NCBI RefSeq assembly: GCF_035594765.1 | Contig: NC_085845.1 | Location: forward strand, 167,478,897 to 167,542,896 | Direction: 5' to 3' | Length of the DNA: 64,000 bases | From: Anolis carolinensis | Lineage: Eukaryota | Part shown: in pieces, positions 425-58,566 of the stretch | Layout of the letters: each line of letters starts with the position of its first letter | Numbering within the stretch: position 1 is the first letter of the stretch | The notes under the pieces: generated by a model | Databases searched by the model: none | What the model was told of the DNA's origin: nothing | Seen by the model: the letters and a program-made list of their open reading frames with translations, nothing else | Made by a program: the position numbers and the translations under genes

Positions 425-1940
425 TCCGCAATGTAGCCTATGATGGAAAGGCATATGAGTCCAGCTCCTTCAATTCACTATCAGTCCCTGAACATGCTAT
501 CGATGGTTCTACAGCTGCAAATTATTTACGTGGGCATTGCACCCACACAAAGCTAGAAGTTAATCCATGGTGGATGGTGGACTTGAGGGCCAGATTTCGA
601 GTACTCAGTGTTGTTGTCACCAACAGAGGAGATTGCTGTGAGGAGCGGTTAGACGGTGCTGTAATCCTAATTGGAGACTCGAAAGATAGAGGAGGCATTA
701 CAAATCCCAGGTACCACTATATTGCTAAATGGGATGTATAGTGTATTCCTTTGAATGACAGTAGAGAATTCTAAGGGCACTTAGTAAACTACATTTTCTG
801 GGTTTCATATGATAGAACCATGACAGTTAAAAATGAAACCAGACTGCTATTGTGTCATGCATGTTGGTTATTATGCCAGATCCCAATGAAAATATTTTGA
901 GGATGGGAGGGGGGACAGCTTCCATTCACAAAATCATAGGTAGCCAGACTAAAATCAGTTTGACCATTTTAGTAGTCACTAGTCACAAGTACACTTTCAC
1001 AAGGCCTTGAAAAAAATCAATCCCCTTCAACATGTCATTGCAACACTAATCAATATGATCTGTTCTGCTTTCAAGATGTGCCACAATTACCTCACTCCGT
1101 ATGGGTGAAACTCACAAATTTGAGTGTAATGAAATGCCCGGACAATATGTGACTATCACCATCCCAGATAGAAGCAATTATCTCTCTGTGTGTGAAGTAC
1201 AAGTCTTTGGGGAGCGCATCATTCCCCCAGGTATGTAGATAGATTTTTCAATTAATTTCCAAGTTGAAACTTTTCCTGTTGAGTGGTTTACACACAGTGT
1301 TTTGCTCCTTGTAGTACCCAATGTGGCTCTTAAAGGGAAGGCCTTCCAGTCCAGCCTCTACCACAAACTAGGTTTGGCAGAACATGCCATCGATGGATCT
1401 ACTGCAGTTGATTATTATCGCCAGTCCTGCACTCACACAGAACTTGAAATGAATCCTTGGTGGATGGTGGATCTGGAGGCAGAATTTAGTGTGGCAAGTG
1501 TTAGTATCAGTAATCGGGAAGACTGCTGTGCAGATCGATTAAATGGAGCTCAAATCCTGATTGGAAACTCAGTGGAGAATGGAGGTTTGAAGAATCCCAG
1601 GTATTTGTTGGCTTGGTACTTCAGAAATTAAAATGAAATGGAAAGGATAAACAAATGCCCACTTATTTACTGACATGAGCAGCAATCATGATTGGTTTTT
1701 TCTTCTTGATTTGCATGTTTTCATTTTTTAGTAGAAAATAAGCTGCTGTCAATCACTTGATTAATACTCTGAACTTATTTATTTCAAGGTGCGCGGTGAT
1801 CACTGCAATTGGTGCTGGAGAAACTGAAAATTTTGATTGCAAAGGAATGAAGGGGCGATATGTTACAGTGACTATCCCCAGTGTTCAGTATCTCACTCTG
1901 TGTGAAGTTCAAGTGTTTGGCGTCAGGGTTGATTCCTCTG
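425..1940 (+). CDS. F-type lectin (fucolectin-like) gene, 5'-partial; two tandem FTLDs from exons 425-710, 1076-1230, 1315-1600, 1789-1940
   Basis: GT-AG exons with compatible phases (1/2/1/2/1) and a repeated 286-nt + ~155-nt exon pair. Both domains have NVA, AIDG (Ca-binding), NPWW.VDL and C-terminal CEVQVFG. The fucose motif H-x26-R-x-D-x4-R is intact in both (H...RGDCCEER; H...REDCCADR). The first exon starts in phase 1, so upstream exons lie outside the window. Confidence 0.95.
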
Positions 1941-6753: not shown

Positions 6754-6948
6754 TAAAGCATTTAAATCATAGCTATTAGAATAAAAGTACAGCAAGCACA
6801 CAGGCGCATGAAAAGAGCCTTCGGTGCTGCTTAGAGTGGTGATAATCTTATCTAGCTACATGATTATAAACTGTAGAAGTGCTATTGATATCCCTCTTTG
6901 CCAGACCACACCACTTCTTTTCTAAATGGTCTTCTTTTCTTCTACAAG

Positions 6949-7662
6949 GTTATGGACAGCATTATTTGTCCCCACAGTGTGGATCCTACAGAACACTTCT
7001 ATGTCATGCTGCTGGGCCAGAGAAACCAGCTACAGAACCAAATTACGAACCTTCACAAGATCTCCCAGAGGATCAAGAAACGATACAAAAACTTTGTGAA
7101 CTTCAATATCACTGGGAGCACGATAAATGTGGCAGGAAGCCTCGCAGCCCTTGTGGGACTGTCCTTAAGCCCTTTTACTCTAGGGTCCTCTCTTTTGGCT
7201 GGTGTGGGGTTAGGGCTCACAGCAGCAGCAGGAACTTTCACAATATCTTCCAACATCTACACGGAGTGTTCTAATACCAGAGAAGTGGCAAGAGTGAAGG
7301 AGATTGCAGTGACTTGCCACAGTCTGATGCGGGAGATAATGAACTGCCTTGACTTCTTACTCCGGAGTCATGAACCATCAGACCCTATTCTACTGCAAGC
7401 TGAGAAAAAGGCTTGTAACGCTTTGTATTCTTCTGCCCTCTGTGTCTCTCAAAAAAGTTTTCTGGTCCCAGAGTTCACAAAAAAGTACACCAAAGAAAGC
7501 AAAACTGTACTGGAGGCAATAGTCCAAGAGCTGACAAAAAGCCTCAAAGCCTGTGAAAGACCTATGGATGAGATTTGTGAACTTCTAGAGAGCAGAAAAG
7601 AATGTCCACTGAAGATCAGTCAACTAACTCCTTGGGATTTCTGCATTCATTCTCCTGTGTAG
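6949..7662 (+). CDS. Apolipoprotein L domain-containing protein 1-like (APOLD1-like), main coding exon; ATG at 6952, 236 aa
   Basis: Clear similarity to APOLD1 (GSLAALVGLSLSPFTLGSSLL, REVARVKEIAVTC..MREI.NCL.F, LESR). Phase-0 acceptor cttcttttcttctacaag at 6948. Lies directly upstream of DDX47 on the same strand, as APOLD1 does in human. Divergent, so ortholog versus paralog is unresolved. Confidence 0.9.
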   Translation, partial: VMDSIICPHSVDPTEHFYVMLLGQRNQLQNQITNLHKISQRIKKRYKNFVNFNITGSTINVAGSLAALVGLSLSPFTLGSSLLAGVGLGLTAAAGTFTISSNIYTECSNTREVARVKEIAVTCHSLMREIMNCLDFLLRSHEPSDPILLQAEKKACNALYSSALCVSQKSFLVPEFTKKYTKESKTVLEAIVQELTKSLKACERPMDEICELLESRKECPLKISQLTPWDFCIHSPV

Positions 7663-8929: not shown

Positions 8930-9404
8930 AAAATTTTTTTTTTATTATTATCAGAATATACAATTAAAATTTTTCCAAAAATGAGACAGTAAAGAACCAA
9001 TTTCTATGATGGGAATGTACATGGTATTTTGAAAAAAACATATGCATATGTTTAACATCTTATTACAACTTATACATACCATCATTAAGCATATTCACTT
9101 TTTTATACTCTAATCTAAAATAACAATGAACATAACAATAACCTGCCATTCATCTAGTTTTCAATTTTCCCTTCTTTAAAAATATTATGCTTATCGTTCT
9201 ATTACAATATTCTATCCATTTACATATATTCTATTTTATTGTTATTCCCATACGCCTTTTTTGTGCCACCTTCACCTTCAACACATCTTATTTAATTTTC
9301 CTAAAATTTCCTTGTTTCTGTAGCAGGTTTCTCCCCCTTTCCTTCAATCAATATATTCAATAAACTTACCCCATATGTGGAATCTGTTTGTTTCCACGTG
9401 TTTT
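8930..9404 (-). mobile_element. L1-like LINE 3' end fragment
   Basis: Poly-T end, degenerate IWGKFIEY-like C-terminus, 9-bp TSD ccatcactt. Confidence 0.6.
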
Positions 9405-10315
9405 CCATCACTTTTGATTCTGGGGATAATGGGAATTGCAGCCCAACAGCAATTGTAGCTCTGAGGTTGGGGAAAGGCTGAAGGACATTTCAAAGTCAGG
9501 TATCATATCCACAAGCCTTGTATCAAATCCCACTTTCCCTGGCATGGGCAACCTTCGGCCCTCCAGATGTTTTGGATGTCAATTCCAGGAAGAGAACATA
9601 ATGTCCAGCCAAAGAGAGGCACCTGAGGGTGGTCTTCGCAAGAGAGATGATGGGCAAGGGGAGGAAGCGGGAAGCCAAATCATCATCCACTGACTCTGCC
9701 AACCTGACCCGCAGGATCAACGTGATACAGGAGTTGCTGAAGTCCATCCTGGTCTTCCATCTGATGTCCCCAAACCTCCCCAGAAGGAACGCCTCTCCAG
9801 ACAGGAAACCAGCTGGAGGTGTGATGGAGCCCTTGTTAGGGGAAACTACCCTAAAATATAGCAGAGCATCCAAAAACCAAACAGGATACAAAAAGTTGAG
9901 TATTCAGCTCCTTAGCCAGCAAAGTATGAAGTGCCCTGTGATGTGGCTGTAAAGAATTCAGAGCTTAGGCAGGCCAAAGTGCAGAGTCCAATTTTAAAAA
10001 TCACAAAAGGTTTATTTAAATAATAAAAAATAACTGCATTTCTCAATAATCAAGAACTGGGTCTGAGCTACTCTAACACCCAACTCTTCTAAGGTTTCAA
10101 GAGAGGGAAAAATCATCCATCACTACATCTCTCAGACACACATGCAGAGAGAGATCCCTCAAAGCACAACGCTCATTCTCTCCATACTAAGATGTAAGAA
10201 GCAGAAGTCAAACTAAAGGCTGGCAGTAGAAAAGTATCCCTTCTACACAACCAATCAGAATGAGAGCAGAAATAGAGAGGAAAGAAGAAATAGATACATT
10301 TCCAACTGTCACACC

Positions 10316-13500: not shown

Positions 13501-14944
13501 CCATCCCACCAAAACCCAAAGAACCCTCTGCCTCCCGCAATCTCCCTTCATGAACCTCCCACTATGCCCTTCCTCTTACAGCAACTTTCTCCTCCCACTA
13601 TCTTCCACAACCCTCCATCTCCTTCCATGTGCTCCACCCACCCACTCAAATCACTTTGCTCACAAACAGGCACTTCAGGCAGTTTCATTATTATGTGCAG
13701 ACCACACCTCACCCCATACAGCCACCCTGTTTCCAGGAGGGAATGGACCTTGTCTGGTGACCCCAGCCCCCCTCGTCCCACATGCCCTGGCCAGAGGGCA
13801 ACCCCTCTTTGCATGAGCTTCTTGTGCCACCTGCCCCAACCAACAGCATAGCTTTCTTGTCAGAAGGTGAGGAACCCAATCTCCCCAGGGACCTCTACTA
13901 TCTCCACCACCTCCTCCTTCTCCTGCCATGAAGGTGGGACACTCTGAAAGTAAATGCCCCTCTTTTTTAGAATACAAAAATCAGGGTGGGAGATACGGGC
14001 TGGTCTGGGGGACTGGCTTTGCAACCAGCATTACAGGTGTGAGTTCAGCCAGCAACTAGGATGACATAGGAGGATGACATTTCCAATCCTCAACAAGAGG
14101 GATTCAACGGTCAGACCTTTGTCATAATCTCTTGTTGCAGCCCTGGTAACTGGTGTAAGGGGGAAGAAAAACTGTCCTCCAGGTCCAAATGGATAGCTGA
14201 AGAGATCTCAATTTCTTGGTGTGTAATTCATTAAAAAGAAGGTGATGTAGAAGGTGGGCCTTTGTAATTGAATGACTTAAAACAATAGTGACCATCTGCA
14301 GCGTACTGAGGCATGAAATTATACCTCCTACAGAATTTTCCAGCCAGGATAAGAAAGGTCAAAGGGTTGAATGGGAGTTATTAAAACTTCCACATAAAGG
14401 TGTTTCTCTACCTGTGTCTTAGAAGCTGCTTTTACCCTCAGATGGGGCTTTGCTCCTAGGAATGGGAAGGATAACTGAGTTGAACTGGTCCTCTTTTCCT
14501 CTGTTTGTTTGTTTATTTATTTACTATATTTCTACTCTGCTCTTCTCACCCTGAAGGGGACTCAGAGTGGCTTACTGTTTGGCCACTTCAGTGCCACATT
14601 GTAAATACACAGTGTATAAATATAATACAATACAAATCAAAACACATTTAACATAAAATACTAGACAAAAATCACACAAAGCATAATAATGTCCAGAAAT
14701 AAGATATAAATAAATATTAAGCATTAAAAATATTTGAAGCCAATTTCAATTATTGTGGAAACTCATCAGTTAAATAATATATTTCACTAAACTCAGTCAT
14801 CAGTGATTAACACAAGCCAGTGAGAAAATTAAGAGAAGTCTCCACAAAATAAATACATAAAAATAAATAAAATAAAATCTAAAAACAAAACAAAAACAAA
14901 AGTCCCCACTAAAGCGTAGGAGGAACAGAGTTGAAAGTTAAGTG

Positions 14945-15206
14945 TTTAGAAATGGAAAAATGGACTATAAATGAGTGTAGAAAAGGAAAGACATTAATAC
15001 AACCACCATGAAGGAGAATGGAAGGACAATTACTTTGCTTTTTCTCTTTCCCTTTTTCCCTTTGTTTTTTTTTTTTTACCTCTTCCTACCTTTCTTTTTT
15101 TGCACTTTTTTATTCTTTCCCAACCCACTTACTCAAACCCCAATACCCAATTTTTCCTATTTTATCATATGCATTAGAAAACTCTTTAATAAAAACAAAA
15201 TAAATA
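14945..15206 (+). mobile_element. L1-like 3'UTR fragment with 12-bp TSD gaaagttaagtg
   Basis: Pyrimidine-rich 3'UTR, AATAAA and A-tail; TSD copies at 14933-14944 and 15207-15218. Confidence 0.6.
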
Positions 15207-17189
15207 GAAAGTTAAGTGCTGGCAGAGAAGCCAGCAGCCCCAATCCAAGCCAAGCCCAGTTTCAGTACTGAGTTGACGGTCAAAGGGGGGGCTGGTTGGT
15301 AAAATTCCCCAGTACTGTCATCCTATAAGGTATCAGTGACTTAAGTAACTTTGGGCTATGGCTAGCTGGCGGTGCGGTCACGACCAGAAATAAGATATAA
15401 ATATATATTTATATTTTTCAGCCTCAGCTTCCTCTTCTGGGGACCTCTTATTGGGTTTCTATGGAAAGAAGCAGAAAAATCAAGGCAAAGGAAGGTGGGA
15501 CAAGAAGCCAGATGGGAGTCTAGCTTGGAAGAGAAAGTGTGTGTCCAGTGGAGAAGAAACAACTAAGGGAGATCCATGCAAAAGAGTTAGGCAAAGACAG
15601 AAGAGAGGGAACAGCACCTCTGCTGGTGCTAACAGGACATCCCTCAAAAACAACCAGGCCTCACACATGTTGGGAGTCCATCCAGGCCTTTCATCCCCTG
15701 GGGAAGAAGCTCCAAGCCCTCCCCGCAAAGGTGACCTTCCCAGGCAGGAGACCACCTGGAGGCATCTCAGACCAACTGCTGGCTACCATGGCCACCATGG
15801 GCAGTTGGAGAAGCCGCTGCCCCCAATTCCCTAGACTTCCATCTCCATCTTGGCAGAAGGACCCCTCCCCTCCGCCCAGCCAACACTGCGGTCCCTGCAA
15901 TGTTAGTCAACCCCTGTACCCATTGTGGGCCTGCAGGAAATTCAAGCCAACCCTTTTCAAACCGGCGCAGGGAGAGGAGTCTTCTCCAAAGTTGTGGTTC
16001 TTCCTCTCATAACTACTGCAGCAGTGGAGAGGACATTGAGACCTACCAGCAGACCAGGGCCACCATCTCCTCCCTGCAGAGCGGACACCCACAACCCCTG
16101 AACATCCCCCGATCTCAACATGGAGGTCTCCTAGCCCATCTCAGGAGAGCAGCCTGAGCAGGAGTGGATGCAGCACCAGGCTCAGAAGGGCAGGAGGAGG
16201 AGCCATAATGGTCGGAGACCCTTTTGTTTGCACAAAGGAGGCAGACCTGAGGGTCTCCGACCATTATGGCTACTCCAATAGAAACTTTAAAGACTGATGT
16301 ATATATCAATTAGTGTTAGCAAACTGAATCTGATTCTATCAAGTTTTAATATCATTTATATGCAAGGTATTATAGTGTATGTATATTAATGAGATTTTAG
16401 CAGACATGATTTGAATGCTTTCTGTTGTATTTCATATAGCTTGATATTGTTTATATGTTTCTGTTGTTTAATATTGTATTTAAAATTTTATATGAATGGC
16501 CTATGTCTAAAGTGTTAATAAAGTGTTATTAAAGATCCAGTAGTTTTCTTTCGAGTAATTATCCTGAATCATCTTCTCGTATTAGCATTTTTAAAGCACA
16601 TTTAAGAACTTAACTGATCAGCTTTGGGATCAAAAAAACTCACTTCTCTGAAGGAAACACCTTTTTGTGTGGTTTATTTGCACAAAATAAGTTGTTTGGG
16701 GTTTTGAGGCAGAAAAAGCAACTCATGCCACTACACAGAGAAATCTTCAGGAACACTTTAGGACCTTCAAATATTGGGAGGTGGGGAATTACTTCCTCAT
16801 AATTGCATAGATGAGTAGTTGTTTGGATGAGTAGAAACTTAAGGGAGAATTGAAGGTCAGAAAAGAAGAGCAAACTCTTATTTCTCTTGTACATTCCTAT
16901 GGAGATTTTCAGTATATATTTCAGATTTCAATATTAATGTCAAAAATACGTAGTATGATTTTACTTAGGATTTGTGCTACATTACAACAGTAAAGACAAA
17001 ATATCACTTAAGTAAAATAAACATTAAATAACAAAAATAAAATGAATGGAAGCTTAAGGAAGAATTGAAGGTCAGGAAAGAAGAGCAAACTTTTATCTCT
17101 CTTGTAACTTCCTATGAGACTGAGAGAGTGTGGCCTGCTGAATGATATCCTGTGTCTTCCTAAGGCATGGGGGATTTGAACCGCAGACA

Positions 17190-51345: not shown

Positions 51346-51911
51346 TGCAAGTAAGAGCATCTTCCAAGTGAGTGCATCTAAAGACTCCCTCACCCTTTCA
51401 CTGCAAAGGTTGCTATGGGTATAACAACAACAACACTACCTTGCCAACTCTCCTAAAACACACTCTAAAATATTTCTTTCAATACTATCTCAATGACCAA
51501 GCAGAAGGAATGCATGAAAAGTTATATTTTGTTTATTCTGGAGCTATTTTTGTACAGCTTCTATAATGACCATCAGCCAAAACACTTGGTTTCTAATCAG
51601 CTTGGAGACTTCAGAGCTGTAGAACATTTGAAGAGACATGCCTACAGCACTATAAAGGTGAGGGCAATCTTGAAAAATCTTCCCTGATACATGGAGAATC
51701 CTTAGTGAACAGAGAAAGGTGGAATTGGTGTGTAGTGCTTGGAATGTAACCTGTTTTGAGGCAGAAGGGCAGCAACTGACACTAATTCAGGAATGTTCTT
51801 CATTTAAACCAAGTTCTGCTTTACGTGGAAACTGGCACATTGCAAATTAGATAGAAAGCCTATTTTCTGAAAAATTTTCAGGAGGAGTGAATTCAGAGCC
51901 TAGAAAGTTAC

Positions 51912-52860
51912 TTTTTATTGATTTTATTTAAGGGGGGGGGTGTATTACAAACAAAGCATTATAAAAACAAGGTTTACAAGTGAGGGTTACAGTGGGGAGG
52001 GTAGAAGGTTTAGGTGATACAGGAAAAGAAACATAAGGGAAAGTTGGGGGGGGGGAAAGTAAGGGGAGGGGTACTCGAAAAAAAACTTCCATTCTTTCCC
52101 CTTTCGGTAAATTGTTTTTCATTTACATTTCTTACAATATCCCAGTTCATTTTTCACATTAACACGTTTTATTAATATACATTTCCACTTTTTCCCAGTT
52201 AGTCTTCTTTATTGGCTTTCCTCTGATTTCTTTCATGTACCAAGTTAATTTGTTCATATTCTTTATTTCTTCTATTTTCTCCAACCATTGATCAATCTGT
52301 GGGATCTGTTCTGTTTTCTATTGTTTTGCTAGAGTTATTCTGGCTGCTGTTGAAATATATGTAAAAAGTTTATCATCATTTTTATTCAATTGTAAGGATG
52401 TATCCGTAATTCCTAATAAATATAGTTCATGTTTCATAGGAAAGTTTCTGTCCACTATTTTTTTCGTGTCTCTACATGAACCATTCTCCAGTATTTTTGT
52501 ACTCTTTCACAAGTCCACCATAGGTGATAGAAAGATCCTTCATACATTTTACATTTCCAACAATTTTTGATGATTTTTATACATTAATGATCATTTCTTT
52601 GGGGTCATATACCATTTGTGGAAAATCTTTAACCAGTTCTCCTTAAGGTCCCAAGCATATGTATATTTTAATTTTTTATACCAAATTTGTTCCCATTCTT
52701 CGAATTTTATCGGACGACCAATATTCCTTGCCCAATTTACCATACATTGCTTTACAGGTTCGGATTCTGTAGACCATCCCAATAGAATATTATAGATCTT
52801 CGATATTTCCTTCTTTTTGGTTTGTAATAGTTTATCCCATGTTTCCCCCGACACCATCCA
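51912..52860 (-). mobile_element. L1-like LINE 3' fragment (ORF2 C-terminus and 3'UTR)
   Basis: [15 protein letters not shown] followed by a CWKC...H.WW.C zinc-knuckle region. Confidence 0.85.
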
Positions 52861-53279
52861 ATATCCTTCCACTGCTCCATCACAAAGCATGCCATAGTGT
52901 TTCCTCTTCTTAAAAGAAACTTCTTAAAAGAAAAAAATGTTCTAGGTGGAATATAACCCTGACACCTCCTTGAAGATCTTTATCATTTGTTTCTTAGCAC
53001 TATGTTCCTTGTTTTCCTCAAACAACATGTTTTATGAGCATTGCCAGTTTTAGCTTGACTTGGATACTGTGAAGGTTTTTATGCATCTGCTGCAGATAAG
53101 ATGAAGCAGTGCTTTCAAGTTTACTTCTGCACTGCAGGCAGGCATCTTTTTCCTCTTTTTTTCAATTCTCAGTTTTTCATCATCAGTGAGTAGAAGCCAC
53201 ACTGGGATCAATAGTGCTTGGCCAGAATTGAAAACTGACTGGGGACAGGACCAAGAAAAAATAATTTGGGGATATCTCA

Positions 53280-53609
53280 GGGCCCCTGGTGGCACAGTGT
53301 GTTAAAGCACTGAACTGCTGAACTTGCGGACCAAAAGGTCCCAGTTTCAAATCCCAGGAGCAGAATGAGTGCCTGCTGTTAGCCCCAGCTCCTGCCAACC
53401 TAGCAGCTCAAAAACATGCAAGTGTGAATAGATCAATAGGTACAGCTCCAGCGGGAAGGAAATGGCCCTCCGTGAAGTCATGCCGGCCACATGACCTTGG
53501 AGGTGTCTATGGACAACACCGGCTCTTTGGCTTAGAAATGGAGATGAGCACCAACCCCCAGAGTCAGTCACGAATGGACTTAACGTCAGGGCAAACCTTT
53601 ACCTTTACC
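53280..53609 (+). mobile_element. Near full-length Sauria SINE
   Basis: tRNA-derived head, BovB-related body, acctttaccttta tail. Confidence 0.85.
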
Positions 53610-54009
53610 AGGGTGAAAGTTCCTCATCAATTCTTGTCCATTCTGGAAATCATAGCTGCAAACAGTGATATTTGTAAGCTCTGCTAAGTGATGAAGCTTA
53701 TGAATGATAACACTCAATATTAAAAATAGTTTGCCATGTTGCATTATGTGTGTGAAAAAGTGAGCCAGACAAGCAAGCTGTTAATAGATCAAGGAGAAAT
53801 GGGATGCTTCTCAAGTCAAAATGCCCTTAAAACAAACATTTTGTAAATAACGAGAAATGGTCACTCTTTGCATTATTGCGTGGTTGCCGCAACTTCTATC
53901 CTGTGGTAATGCTGTTTTTGAATCCTTCAAAAATTCACATCTTCTTCATCAGATATGATAAAATAGTATCCAGAGGAAATAAAAAGGATAGTGTTATAAT
54001 ATTAAGGGG

Positions 54010-54982
54010 AAATAAGTTGATCACAAAAATATACAAAAAATTACTGGAATGGGACACTGAAACTGAACATGTAAAGACATGTATGACCCAGTGGGCAAGG
54101 GATATAGGAAGACCAATCCTATACGAAGAATGGGAAAAGCTATGGGGAAAAAATATGAAATTTAATAACGCCTCGGATCTTAGAGAAAACCAGTTCAAAA
54201 TGATATATAGGTGGTACATAACTCCAAAAAAATTAGGTCACTACAAGAAAGATAAACGAACGAAATGCTGGAAATGCCAGGAGAAAGAGGGAAATTTTTT
54301 CCACATGTGGTGGGCATGTGCTAAAACGAAGAAATATTGGACAGAAATACACAAAGAATCCCGGAAAATATTGAAAAAAGACTTACCATTTAGACCAGAA
54401 CTATATCTGTTAGGGGTGACTAACACGAACTTAGGAAAAAATGAAGAAAAGATCTTAAATTATTTAGCCACGGGGGCCAGAATTGTTTTTGCAAGAATCT
54501 GGAGATCAAACCAAGTACCTACAACAGACCAGTGGCTGGTAAAGATAAGTGATATAAAGAATATGGACAAGCTGACATTCCTAATGAAGAAACAACAAGG
54601 AAACCCAATAAAAGAAACGGATTGGTCAAATTTCGAGGAATACATAAGACAAAGAATGCTAGATTCAGAGGAAAAGAAATAGAGATTAGAGCTCTTGGAA
54701 GAGGAAAAAGGAAACACCCAAAAGTGATCGGGACACTCGTCATAAGAGGAATGGTCATCTGATGATGAAATCTGCAGAGTTAAACAAATGAAGAATACAC
54801 ACTCTTAAATCATTCCACCTCACACCCCCTCCCTCTCTACCCTCTCCTCTCCCCCCTCTTGCATGAAGTACCCCCTCCCTAACCACCCTCCCCTTACCAG
54901 TACACCACCCCTTCCCCAAAATGTGATTTTCCCCCAGTTTTTTTAAGCATTGTATTAAAAGATCTCAATAAAAATACATAAA
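54010..54982 (+). mobile_element. 5'-truncated L1-like LINE with a 181-bp target-site duplication
   Basis: Uninterrupted ORF2 C-terminus (KMIYRWYITP...CWKC...HMWWAC), C-rich 3'UTR, AATAAA and A-tail; flanking repeats at 53829-54009 and 54983-55163. Confidence 0.9.
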
Positions 54983-56422
54983 AAAACAAACATTTTGTAA
55001 ATAACGAGAAATGGTCACTCTTTGCATTATTGCGTGGTTGCCGCAACCTCTATCCTGTGGTAATGCTGTTTTTGAATCCTTCAAAAATTCACATCTTCTT
55101 CATCAGATATGATAAAATAGTATCCAGAGGAAATAAAAAGGATAGTGTTATAATATTAAGGGGTTGGTGTGTGCTTTGTAACTTCAAACAAAGAAGACAA
55201 ACTAAATTGCTATTAGGTAGACTGAAGCAATTGCACGAGGCAACACATTTCAGACATCATTAAATGTCTTGGTTATTATAGTACTTTTATTGTTAGGGGT
55301 AGAGATGAGTACTTGTGGGATTTCTGTACCAAAGGAGCTGGGCTACACCTGGTTGCATCTAAGTGGTGGGATGTGTAATTTGTGTTATTTTTTAACCATG
55401 CCTGTTTGCTAAGCTGCTCTTCATGAATCTATGAAAGATATTGGTCTTCCTGAATTTACACTGGGATCACATCATGTGGCAGCTGCTATGTACACAGCAA
55501 ACAATCTTTATTTCCAATAGGCTCCTAAAGTGTTACTGTAAATTGAGTGTTGACCTTGGTGAGGATTGGCCGACACAATTTACAGGTCTGTATTGTACAT
55601 ATGTATTGTCTGCTTACATTATGGTGCAACCAGAGAAATTGAGTGCCAGTTATTCATTTGTAAGAGGAAATATCAGTAAGATGGCCCTGTGCTATTTCCG
55701 TGCCATTGTATTTCGGGGCCAAACTACATGGAGTCAAACCATCATTCTCAATTGGTCTTGTTGCCATAAAAAGCAGGGATTATTTGTATTAACAGAAGTC
55801 ATTCCTAACAGGTTTTTCTTATTGCTTTGTTCCTGGAAGGCTTCTTTGTTTTGCATGTATGACACACACATATTAACAATAAGTGTCAAACTCCGACACG
55901 GTTAGTTTTTTGCTATCAATCTGTAGGAAATCAGATGCCTCTAGTAGCTTAGATCATGCCGAATATTGACAACTTTGCTCTGTGTGAAGACTTTGTCCCA
56001 GTTTCTTCAGCCAAGGATGGGAAGAGATAAGATGATAAAATTGCACAAATGGACATCCCAGTATCATATTCTCAAGGTGGAGTGAAACAGGTACATGAAA
56101 AATTATTCTCTGAGGAAGAACAAAGAAGAACCAAGAACCCTGCTGGCGGTAGTTGGAGTGATGGGCTCCATGCTTGTGGTTAATCAATCTGCTCCGGCTT
56201 TTTAGCCTGAATTCTAAAGGAGTTGCTGAAAGTGTTTGTATATGTGCCTTAAAATCACCTGTTGACTTCATGGTGACCCCACAAATTTCATAGTGTTTCT
56301 TTAAGGAAGGAGCATTCAGAGGTGGTTTGCCTTCCTCTGAAATAAATCCCATATTACCTGATATTTGTTGGTGGTCCCCATTCAAGTACTAACCAGGCCT
56401 GACCTTGCTGAGATTCCAAGAG

Positions 56423-56575
56423 CAGTGGTTCTCAACCTTCCTGATGCCACGACCCTTTAATACAGTTCCTCATGTTGTGGTGACCCACAACCATAAAATT
56501 ATTTTCGTTGCTATTTCATAACTGCAATTTTGCTACTGTTATGAATCATAATGTAAATATCTGATATACAGGATG
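56423..56575 (+). mobile_element. SPIN (Space Invader / URR1-like) hAT terminal segment
   Basis: CAGTGGTTCTCAACCTTCCT.ATGCC.CGACCCTTTAATACAGTTCCTCATGTTGTGGTGACCC..AACCATAAAATTATTTTCGTTGCTA matches the SPIN/URR1 terminus as I recall it. Confidence 0.75.
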
Positions 56576-56887
56576 CATTTTCATTCACTGGACCAAATTG
56601 GGCACAAATACCCGATATACCTAAATGCTGGTGGGCTTGTGGGGAAATGATTTTGTCATTTGGGAGTTGTAGTTGCTAGGATGTATAGTTCACCTACAAT
56701 CAAAGAGCATTCAGAACTCCACCAACAATAGAACTGAACCAAACTTGGCACACAGAACTCCCATGACCAACATAAAATACTGGAAGGGTTTGGTGGGCAT
56801 TGAGTTGTAGTTCACCTACATCCAGAGAGCACTGTGAACGCAAACAGCAATGGATTCTCCTCCTCTTGATGCTGCTGGGCCACTCTC

Positions 56888-57623
56888 TCTCTCTCTTTTT
56901 TTAATTTTTATTTATTTATACTTGAAACTTATACATTCTTAAACAAATTTGCAATACAGAGTTATATATATCAAGCTCATACAGTATTTTCACTCTCTAT
57001 ATTACATACTCATATTATTTACCTTTTATTACCCCTCACCTAGTGCTATCCCTTCACCCCAGACCAGCCAGTTACAATATTTATTTCCAAAATTCCATTG
57101 TTTCTTTTACAGTTTTTTTCCCCTTACCTTCTACATATACAAACTCTATAAATTTTCCCCATATCTTCCCAAAATCATCCTTTTTTAATATCCCTCTTTT
57201 AATTTTAATCTTACATGTCAATTTATCATTTATCGCAATATCCCAAACCTCCTTATACCATTCTTCCAATTGGCACTCCTCACTACCTTTCCATTTTTTG
57301 GCTATTAACAATCTTGCTGCTGTTAGCAAGTTGGCGATTAGTTCCTTTAACTCTTTTGATACTTGAATATTATCCATAAATGACAACAGTGCTATTTCAG
57401 GCGTTCCTATTATTTCTATTTTGGTGATTCCCTTTATTTCTTTAAAAACGTTCTCCCAAAATTTTTGAACATATTTACAGGACCACCACATATGTATATA
57501 TGTACCATTTTCCTGGCAGCCCCTCCAGCACTGCTTAGAGTATTTCTTATCAATTTGATTTAATCTAATTGGTGTGAGGTACCATCTCCAAACCACTTTA
57601 TAATAATTCTCTTTTATTCTTAT
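56888..57623 (-). mobile_element. 5'-truncated L1-like LINE with a 184-bp target-site duplication
   Basis: Uninterrupted ORF2 C-terminus (KVVWRWYLTP...CWRGC...HMWWSC), poly-T end; flanking repeats at 56704-56887 and 57624-57807. Confidence 0.9.
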
Positions 57624-58566
57624 AGAGCATTTAGAACTCCACCAACAATAGAACTGAACCAAACTTGGCACACAGAACTCCCATGACCAACATAAAATAC
57701 TGGAAGGGTTTGGTGGGCATTGAGTTGTAGTTCACCTACATCCAGAGAGCACTGTGAACGCAAACAGCAATGGATTCTCCTCCTCTTGATGCTGCTGGGC
57801 CACTCTCAGTCCCACGTTGTGCGGGCACTTTCCCCCCTGCCTTGAGGGGACTCGCCGGCACGAACCTCCCTCCAGCCTTGCACACTCTCCCTCACCCGTG
57901 CACCATGCTGCCATAGTGACTTTACCATAGGCAAGATCTTTTCAGGGGGGGCTTCCCTTTTCCTACTTCTGAATTTCCCTAAGGTCACCCAGTGAGTTTC
58001 CATGGCCAGGGAGATTTAAACCCTGGTCTCCAGAGTTGTACTCCATTGCCGAAACCACTACACCACACTTGCTCTGTTCTTTCCAGTTACTCTGAGAAAA
58101 CATTGGTGCATTTTTTTCTGATCATAATTTTCATAAACTTCTCAAAGGGGTCCTACCCCAAATAGTTGAAGATATTTGTATCTTTATTAAGTGTAAATGA
58201 GAGTAACAGAAGAACAGAGTAGGGGTGGGGAAAGCATCCCAGAATTACCTGTGATGAATTTTTCACTGTCTCTCAACTCTATTTTTTTGTCTTTTCATGC
58301 TAACAAGCATTTTAGAGATAGTATAGACCAAGAATGAACAAACTTTCTAACTTGGTGGCCGCATGGCAGGCCAGGAGGGAGGGGGTTCTCCCCAAGTCCC
58401 TTCCCTGCCCTTTCCTTCTTTTCCTCTTATCTTTTTGGAGGCAGAAAGTGAAGGAAAGATAGGAAACATTTGGATTCCAAAAGGTTTGGTCTTGGTCAGG
58501 ATGAAATGGTTGATGGGAGAGAAAAAGTGTATCTATGTGACCCCATATTGCCTACTCCCGATATAT

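Follow-up and report, generated by a model that had tools for sequence, protein, structure and literature searches.

The question raised by this locus is why two neighbouring insertions of L1-type long interspersed elements (LINEs) should be flanked by what are probably very long target-site duplications (TSDs) of almost the same size. The locus lies in a 64,000-nucleotide stretch of the Anolis carolinensis genome, which we refer to as the window (assembly GCF_035594765.1, contig NC_085845.1, positions 167,478,897 to 167,542,896 of the forward strand). A first-pass annotation, made from the letters alone, had described direct repeats of 181 and 184 bp, each with one mismatch, around two L1-like elements, and had read the matching lengths as the trace of a systematic mechanism. 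The repeats are borne out by our analysis. The explanation that we favour, and to which we give about half of our confidence, is that both are real, young insertions of L1 type that were finished at a distant second-strand break, and that their equal length is a coincidence, the lengths of long TSDs being broadly spread.

Two repeat pairs and the elements between them

Self-comparison of the assembled sequence showed that 53829-54009 matches 54983-55163 at 180/181 bases (sole difference 53894 T / 55048 C), and that 56704-56887 matches 57624-57807 at 183/184 bases (sole difference 56712 C / 57632 T). These were the only long, near-perfect and closely spaced repeats in the 64 kb, and the two pairs together differ at 2/365 bases (0.55%, 95% confidence interval 0.07-2.0%). 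Exact direct repeats within 53400-58300 reach 175 bases, whereas 200 first-order Markov simulations produced none longer than 17; the repeats are far beyond chance. The parts of the locus are as follows.

53829..54009, + strand: upstream copy of TSD1, 181 bp, beginning at the TT|AAAA endonuclease site
54010..54982, + strand: element 1, a 5'-truncated LINE of L1 type, 973 bp, with ORF2 C-terminus, 3' untranslated region (UTR), AATAAA and a short A tail
54983..55163, + strand: downstream copy of TSD1, differing from the upstream one at a single base (T/C)
56704..56887, - strand: TSD2 copy adjoining the 3' end of element 2, 184 bp
56888..57623, - strand: element 2, a 5'-truncated LINE of L1 type from another family, 736 bp, with ORF2 C-terminus, 3' UTR and tail
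57624..57807, - strand: TSD2 copy adjoining the 5' end of element 2, differing at a single base (C/T) that lies 9 bp from the 5' junction

Element 1 begins within ORF2, whose C-terminus is open over 223 amino acids (54011-54682), and continues through a 300-bp 3' UTR with a C-rich tract to an AATAAA at 54967 (+) and its short tail. This anatomy, together with a bottom-strand 5'-TTTT/AA at the insertion site, agrees with the earlier description of a truncated plus-strand element at a TT|AAAA site. Element 2 has an open ORF2 C-terminus of 180 amino acids (57623-57081, -), a 193-bp 3' UTR with AATAAA at 56916 (-), and a tail of A7 followed by four GA units. It had been called distinct from element 1, rightly, as the two proteins share 31% amino acid identity over 161 residues; they therefore belong to separate families and represent separate insertion events.

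Close relatives of both were found among UniRef proteins of Anolis carolinensis. Element 1 is identical to one of them (P0001) at 219/223 residues (98%), and element 2 matches three others at 77/77 (P0008), 74/77 and 101/107 residues. These near-identical relatives are named reverse transcriptase (RT) zinc-binding-domain proteins, and a C-x-x-C ... H-x-W-W-x-C motif is conserved across the alignment of element and relative proteins. The RT domain itself is truncated away in both elements; an RT-bearing relative was retrieved for element 2 only, a 973-residue protein (P0005) that is 56% identical to it and carries RVT_1 (Pfam, E 2e-40). A Pfam search of the two ORF2 fragments themselves gave zero matches. 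From the homology of the ORF2 C-termini and the structure of the 3' ends, both copies are likely to be of L1 type. As judged from their open frames and near-identical sister proteins, both insertions are young. The 0.55% divergence of the repeats fits that youth, since the frames are open and the proteins differ at 4/223 residues from one sister and at 0/77, 3/77 and 6/107 from three others.

Six short motifs from the elements gave 0 matches in the available supplement of PMC5381506, where a family consensus was sought, and sister-copy DNA with flanks was absent from the metagenome, viral and prokaryote genome contigs searched.

Junctions and a possible course of insertion

Both repeats start directly after the A-rich tail and stop exactly at the 5' truncation point, and the geometry is therefore that of a TSD. 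Each insertion thus has a direct repeat of more than 20 bp abutting both of its junctions, the definition of a long TSD (L-TSD), and at 181 and 184 bp both fall outside the canonical L1 length of about 7-20 bp. The first nick at element 1 is canonical (bottom strand 5'-TTTT/AA), and that at element 2, 5'-CTCTC/AG, is a pyrimidine/purine step off the consensus. The far boundaries, GGGG/TT for element 1 and CTCT/TT for element 2, are neither of the TTTT/AA type; for the second L1 cut, PMC12809410 describes no strong consensus and an unresolved mechanism.

The 5' junctions differ in detail. Where element 1 begins, its sister proteins read S-E-N-K and the window reads R-G-N-K. There is accordingly no microhomology and no overlap with the family sequence, as far as sister proteins represent it, which argues against a chimera assembled through such an overlap. 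The sister proteins of element 2 have M-S-I-R at this point, and the target ends in three bases that form a Ser codon in frame, which is possibly a sign of 2-3 bases of microhomology, being compatible with it and not proof of it. We also considered whether the TSD2 mismatch 9 bp from this junction was derived from the element, and dropped the idea when M-S-I-R gave no clean match. At the other end of element 2, the four GA units of the tail copy the start of the target sequence, which suggests primer slippage.

On the reading that we favour, insertion would have proceeded as follows. The L1 endonuclease would have nicked one strand, at the TTTT/AA seen at element 1 and presumably at the degenerate pyrimidine/purine step at element 2. 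The freed 3' end would then have primed complementary DNA (cDNA) on the A tail of the RNA; slippage of this primer on the target GAGAG is the likely source of the four GA units now in the tail of element 2. Reverse transcription would have stopped early, leaving the 5' truncation that both copies display. With the usual nearby second nick absent, a distant break in the opposite strand, either pre-existing or host-made, may have been used instead, as in the nucleotide excision repair (NER) model of PMC5223499. This second break would have lain ~180 bases downstream and not at the usual ~15, about ten times further. The ~180-base stagger would have been opened, joined to the cDNA end and filled in, so that the target was copied twice. 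The join would have been direct in element 1, and in element 2 it may have used 2-3 bases of microhomology.

Explanations for the matching lengths

Long TSDs are a named class of outcome (L-TSD, >20 bp; PMC4245944, PMC2666801), and most likely both insertions are additional cases of it. In the genomes of human, cow, opossum and zebrafish, the length distribution of L1 TSDs has its peak at 13-15 bp (PMC4245944). In HeLa cells at most 10% of the insertions recovered had TSDs of more than 100 bp, but such TSDs were dominant in NER-deficient cells, where a distal, unrelated nick was proposed to complete the insertion (PMC5223499). Among L1 insertions, those truncated at the 5' end, as both are here, alter their targets in the widest variety of ways (PMC11702581).

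As a comparison set we used the 52 TSDs of more than 20 bp in four tables of PMC5223499, omitting rows of <=20 bp and deletions; values were taken as printed, and a few disagree with their own coordinates. Lengths ranged from 40 to 6765 bp, with 4/52 at 100-300 bp and 0/52 at 165-200 bp. The 32 TSDs of 100-1300 bp showed no periodicity when a Rayleigh test was run for periods between 160 and 210 bp (p = 0.47). Only 7/1326 pairs of published lengths (0.5%) lie within 3 bp of each other, and under log-uniform models the chance that a second long TSD falls within 3 bp of the first is 0.7-1.2%.

Several points weigh against the favoured explanation. The joint chance that a neighbouring pair should both be long and lie <=3 bp apart is ~7e-7 to 1e-4, assuming independence and long-TSD rates of 1-10%. 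Coincidence is credible only because the scan was very large, the pair having been picked post hoc from ~250,000 windows. The human set comes mostly from NER-deficient cultured cells and engineered L1, not from lizard germline; the single mismatch in each repeat fits an allelic difference as well as it fits age; and the 5' junctions and TSDs, as we describe them, are features of the assembled sequence alone.

The first alternative is that a nucleosome sets the length. The first nick would fall in one linker and the second break on the other, where the linkers cross ~180 bases away, and the break could be made by ORF2p, by a host nuclease or through strand invasion by the cDNA end. We regard such a hidden class of anole L1 insertions, with the second break placed by chromatin geometry (~180 bp, perhaps ~80 bp) and nucleosome-sized host DNA duplicated, as a tentative possibility, rather doubtful on present evidence. 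It predicts that anole L1 TSDs have a secondary peak at the length of one nucleosome, and perhaps a further one at that of a DNA gyre (~80 bp). What recommends it is that lengths of 181 and 184 bp arose in families that are unrelated and lie on opposite strands; under broad length models, agreement to within 3 bp has a 0.5-1.2% chance. Correlated chromatin cleavage peaks at ~80 nt, the gyre, and then within 120-219 nt, the separation at which the entry linker crosses the exit linker (PMC11312488). The window also holds a third, older candidate, described below, which measures ~79 bp. L1 TSDs have also been reported to be longer in squamates, in a survey that counted only homologies of <30 bp (PMC13320814).

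Against this stand the sample, which is two cases chosen post hoc from a very large scan, and the human data, in which the interval of 165-200 bp is empty and no period appears. The human data lend no support to nucleosome spacing, with the reservation that the elements were engineered and the cells mostly repair-deficient. The genomic peak at 13-15 bp and the short TSD candidates at nearby L1-like pieces count in the same direction, and the ~79-bp case is 88% identical, at a non-canonical site and around an insert that is at most a possible L1. Phasing gives an answer that depends on the repeat length: before insertion the two nick pairs would have lain 1721 bp apart, which is 9.43 repeats of 182.5 bp, out of phase, or 9.06 repeats of 190 bp, in phase. 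We conclude that the nucleosome idea is physically sound and, matching lengths alone being insufficient for it, plausible but unsupported. Of the interpretation first proposed for the pair, two independent insertions with very long TSDs fit the junction geometry and the unrelated families, and the further step to a nucleosome-spaced nick is so far unsupported, given two post hoc cases and the empty interval in the human set.

Published surveys leave room for a peak of this kind. In the literature that we searched, which left older subscription papers and Repbase out of reach, no L1 TSD of ~180 bp or nucleosome size was found for lizards. Two surveys covering squamates would be blind to a 180-bp peak because of their upper limits: PMC13295347 confined its TSD search to 10-49 bases, and PMC13320814, which found longer L1 TSDs in squamates, applied the <30 bp limit given above.

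An assembly artefact is a less probable explanation, and we consider it improbable. Here the assembler would have run ~170 bases along the empty haplotype before switching to the filled one, so that the true TSD would be short and the mismatches would be single-nucleotide polymorphisms. One mismatch per repeat is what an allelic difference could give; 44/52 database anole L1 loci are polymorphic in at least one population (PMC3787681), and a fixed library insert size could conceivably yield matching lengths. The window, however, contains zero N across its 64 kb, and overlap by which haplotypes could have been joined at the 5' junctions is none for element 1 and at most 2-3 bases for element 2. 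The repeats are non-identical and their lengths differ by 3 bp, which would be unlike a collapse of k-mer size. Among 24 public sequencing runs listed, 14 held at least half of the region's sampled words (best 0.76); these figures cannot tell carriers from non-carriers and were not used as evidence.

More improbable still, in our judgement, is an origin at the replication fork, in which L1 would nick the lagging-strand template and the 3' end of an unligated Okazaki fragment, whose length is about one nucleosome repeat, would serve as the second nick and so bound long TSDs. The far boundaries, which lack an endonuclease consensus, would suit this origin, and a proposal that the L1 endonuclease cuts close to Okazaki fragments at the replisome has been made (PMC12809410). 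The fork origin nevertheless implies lengths anywhere from 0 to ~200 bp, except where the first nick falls at a fragment start; published long TSDs are mostly >200 bp, and the opposite orientations of the two elements, 2.7 kb apart, would require forks travelling both ways.

Hardly credible, finally, is that tandem duplications of 181 and 184 bp existed beforehand and that L1s later entered their junctions without TSDs of their own: an old internal repeat in the host sequence around TSD2 (56686-56732 vs 56808-56854, 36/47 identical) indicates that local duplication occurs there, but a base-exact junction insertion without TSD would be needed twice, and at element 1 a canonical endonuclease site would have to happen to fall at the start of the unit.

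Known systems and other features of the window

The nearest likeness to the two insertions is with the L-TSD LINE insertions recovered from cultured cells (PMC4245944, PMC2666801, PMC5223499), which share 5' truncation, a first nick of the endonuclease type, an A tail, duplications far longer than 20 bp and a second boundary without consensus. The present pair differs in being genomic, apparently inherited and from a lizard, and in that its families, which are unrelated, lie 2.7 kb apart and have TSD lengths that differ by no more than 3 bp, whereas the published lengths are spread as described above. A second likeness is with the Anolis L1 families of lizard clades 1 and 2 (PMC5381506, PMC3787681, PMC5389967), through the near-identical Anolis carolinensis proteins, the joint activity of divergent families, the C/T-rich 3' UTR and the predominance of truncated copies. 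TSD lengths were not found in the available text of these Anolis papers, in which 'TSD' occurs 0 times in PMC5389967 and 'duplication' 0 times in PMC3787681.

The longer L1-endonuclease TSDs of squamates in PMC13320814 are a further parallel, with the difference that a 180-bp TSD would land in the 'homology-associated' class of that survey; the only Anolis species found in the available part of its supplement was A. sagrei. The element R9 of the rotifer Adineta vaga is site-specific to ribosomal DNA, related to R2 and has its long TSD as a family trait, whereas the present elements are of L1 type, at unrelated sites, and examined as single copies. Its TSD is said, in work by Gladyshev and Arkhipova of 2009, to be 126 bp long. 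The likeness lies in its being a retrotransposon without long terminal repeats (non-LTR) that has an exceptionally long TSD; R9 is mentioned in PMC3636483.

These comparisons bear on second-strand cutting in L1 integration, a question still open (PMC12809410). A TSD peak at ~180 bp in young anole L1s, if there were one, would implicate either chromatin geometry or the replication fork as the ruler, and squamate genomes would be gaining nucleosome-sized duplications from L1; a class placed by chromatin would further give a genomic readout of how the second nick is positioned. If there is no such peak, the locus is of modest interest, as a pair of clean genomic cases of an outcome that is rare but already known. 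Even then it is a reminder that TSD finders and structural-variant classifiers mislabel long TSDs.

One older feature lies about 280 bp before TSD2.

56423..56438, + strand: terminal inverted repeat (TIR) of a SPIN-type hAT element, identified with the TIR table of PMC3014272

A search that allowed as many as 3 mismatches found no partner end for this TIR. From its presence, TSD2 probably lies inside an older DNA-transposon remnant.

Other L1-like pieces in the window had been credited in the first-pass annotation with TSDs of 9-12 bp, a claim that could be checked in part: one place has an exact 12-bp repeat (14933/15207), and in two others the flanking repeat is ~8 bp (9.1-9.4 kb) or imperfect (51.9-52.9 kb). 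The last of these, at 51910-52925 (-), is an older, stop-riddled 3' end of L1 type that lies ~0.9 kb from TSD1, is 44% identical to element 1 in amino acids and 64% in nucleotides, and has only an imperfect TSD candidate of ~11-12 bp. Together with elements 1 and 2 it brings the number of L1-type 3' ends within 6 kb to three. At 9100-9405 (-) there is a short, decayed piece that is 74% identical over 90 nt to the ORF2 end of element 2 and is flanked by the ~8-bp repeat at a TTTT/GA-type site. The exact 12-bp repeat, at a TTTC/AA site, flanks a 262-bp AT-rich insert with AATAAA at 14933-15218 (+), itself enclosed by a wider 20-bp repeat (14693/15384). A scan for poly(A) with adjoining repeats, tried as a census of short TSDs, was rejected: it returned 10 hits in the window (8 short, 2 long) and 2-12 in 10 block shuffles, which is chance level.

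The ~79-bp candidate lies at 16827-17119 (+), where 16827-16905 and 17042-17119 form a direct repeat (66/75 identical, ungapped). Between its copies is a 136-bp insert of 79% AT with an A-rich AATAAA tail; there is no tandem unit, and the site is non-canonical. To judge from this arrangement, the repeat may be an older long TSD, which could belong either to the broad tail of long duplications or to a one-gyre class.

Elsewhere in the window, two similar exon-like open reading frames at 397-741 and 1239-1631 (+) are 68% identical in nucleotides over ~300 bp, and presumably encode domains resembling fucolectin or F-type lectins. A further open frame of 257 codons, at 6889-7662 (+), resembles what we take to be an apolipoprotein-L-domain protein.

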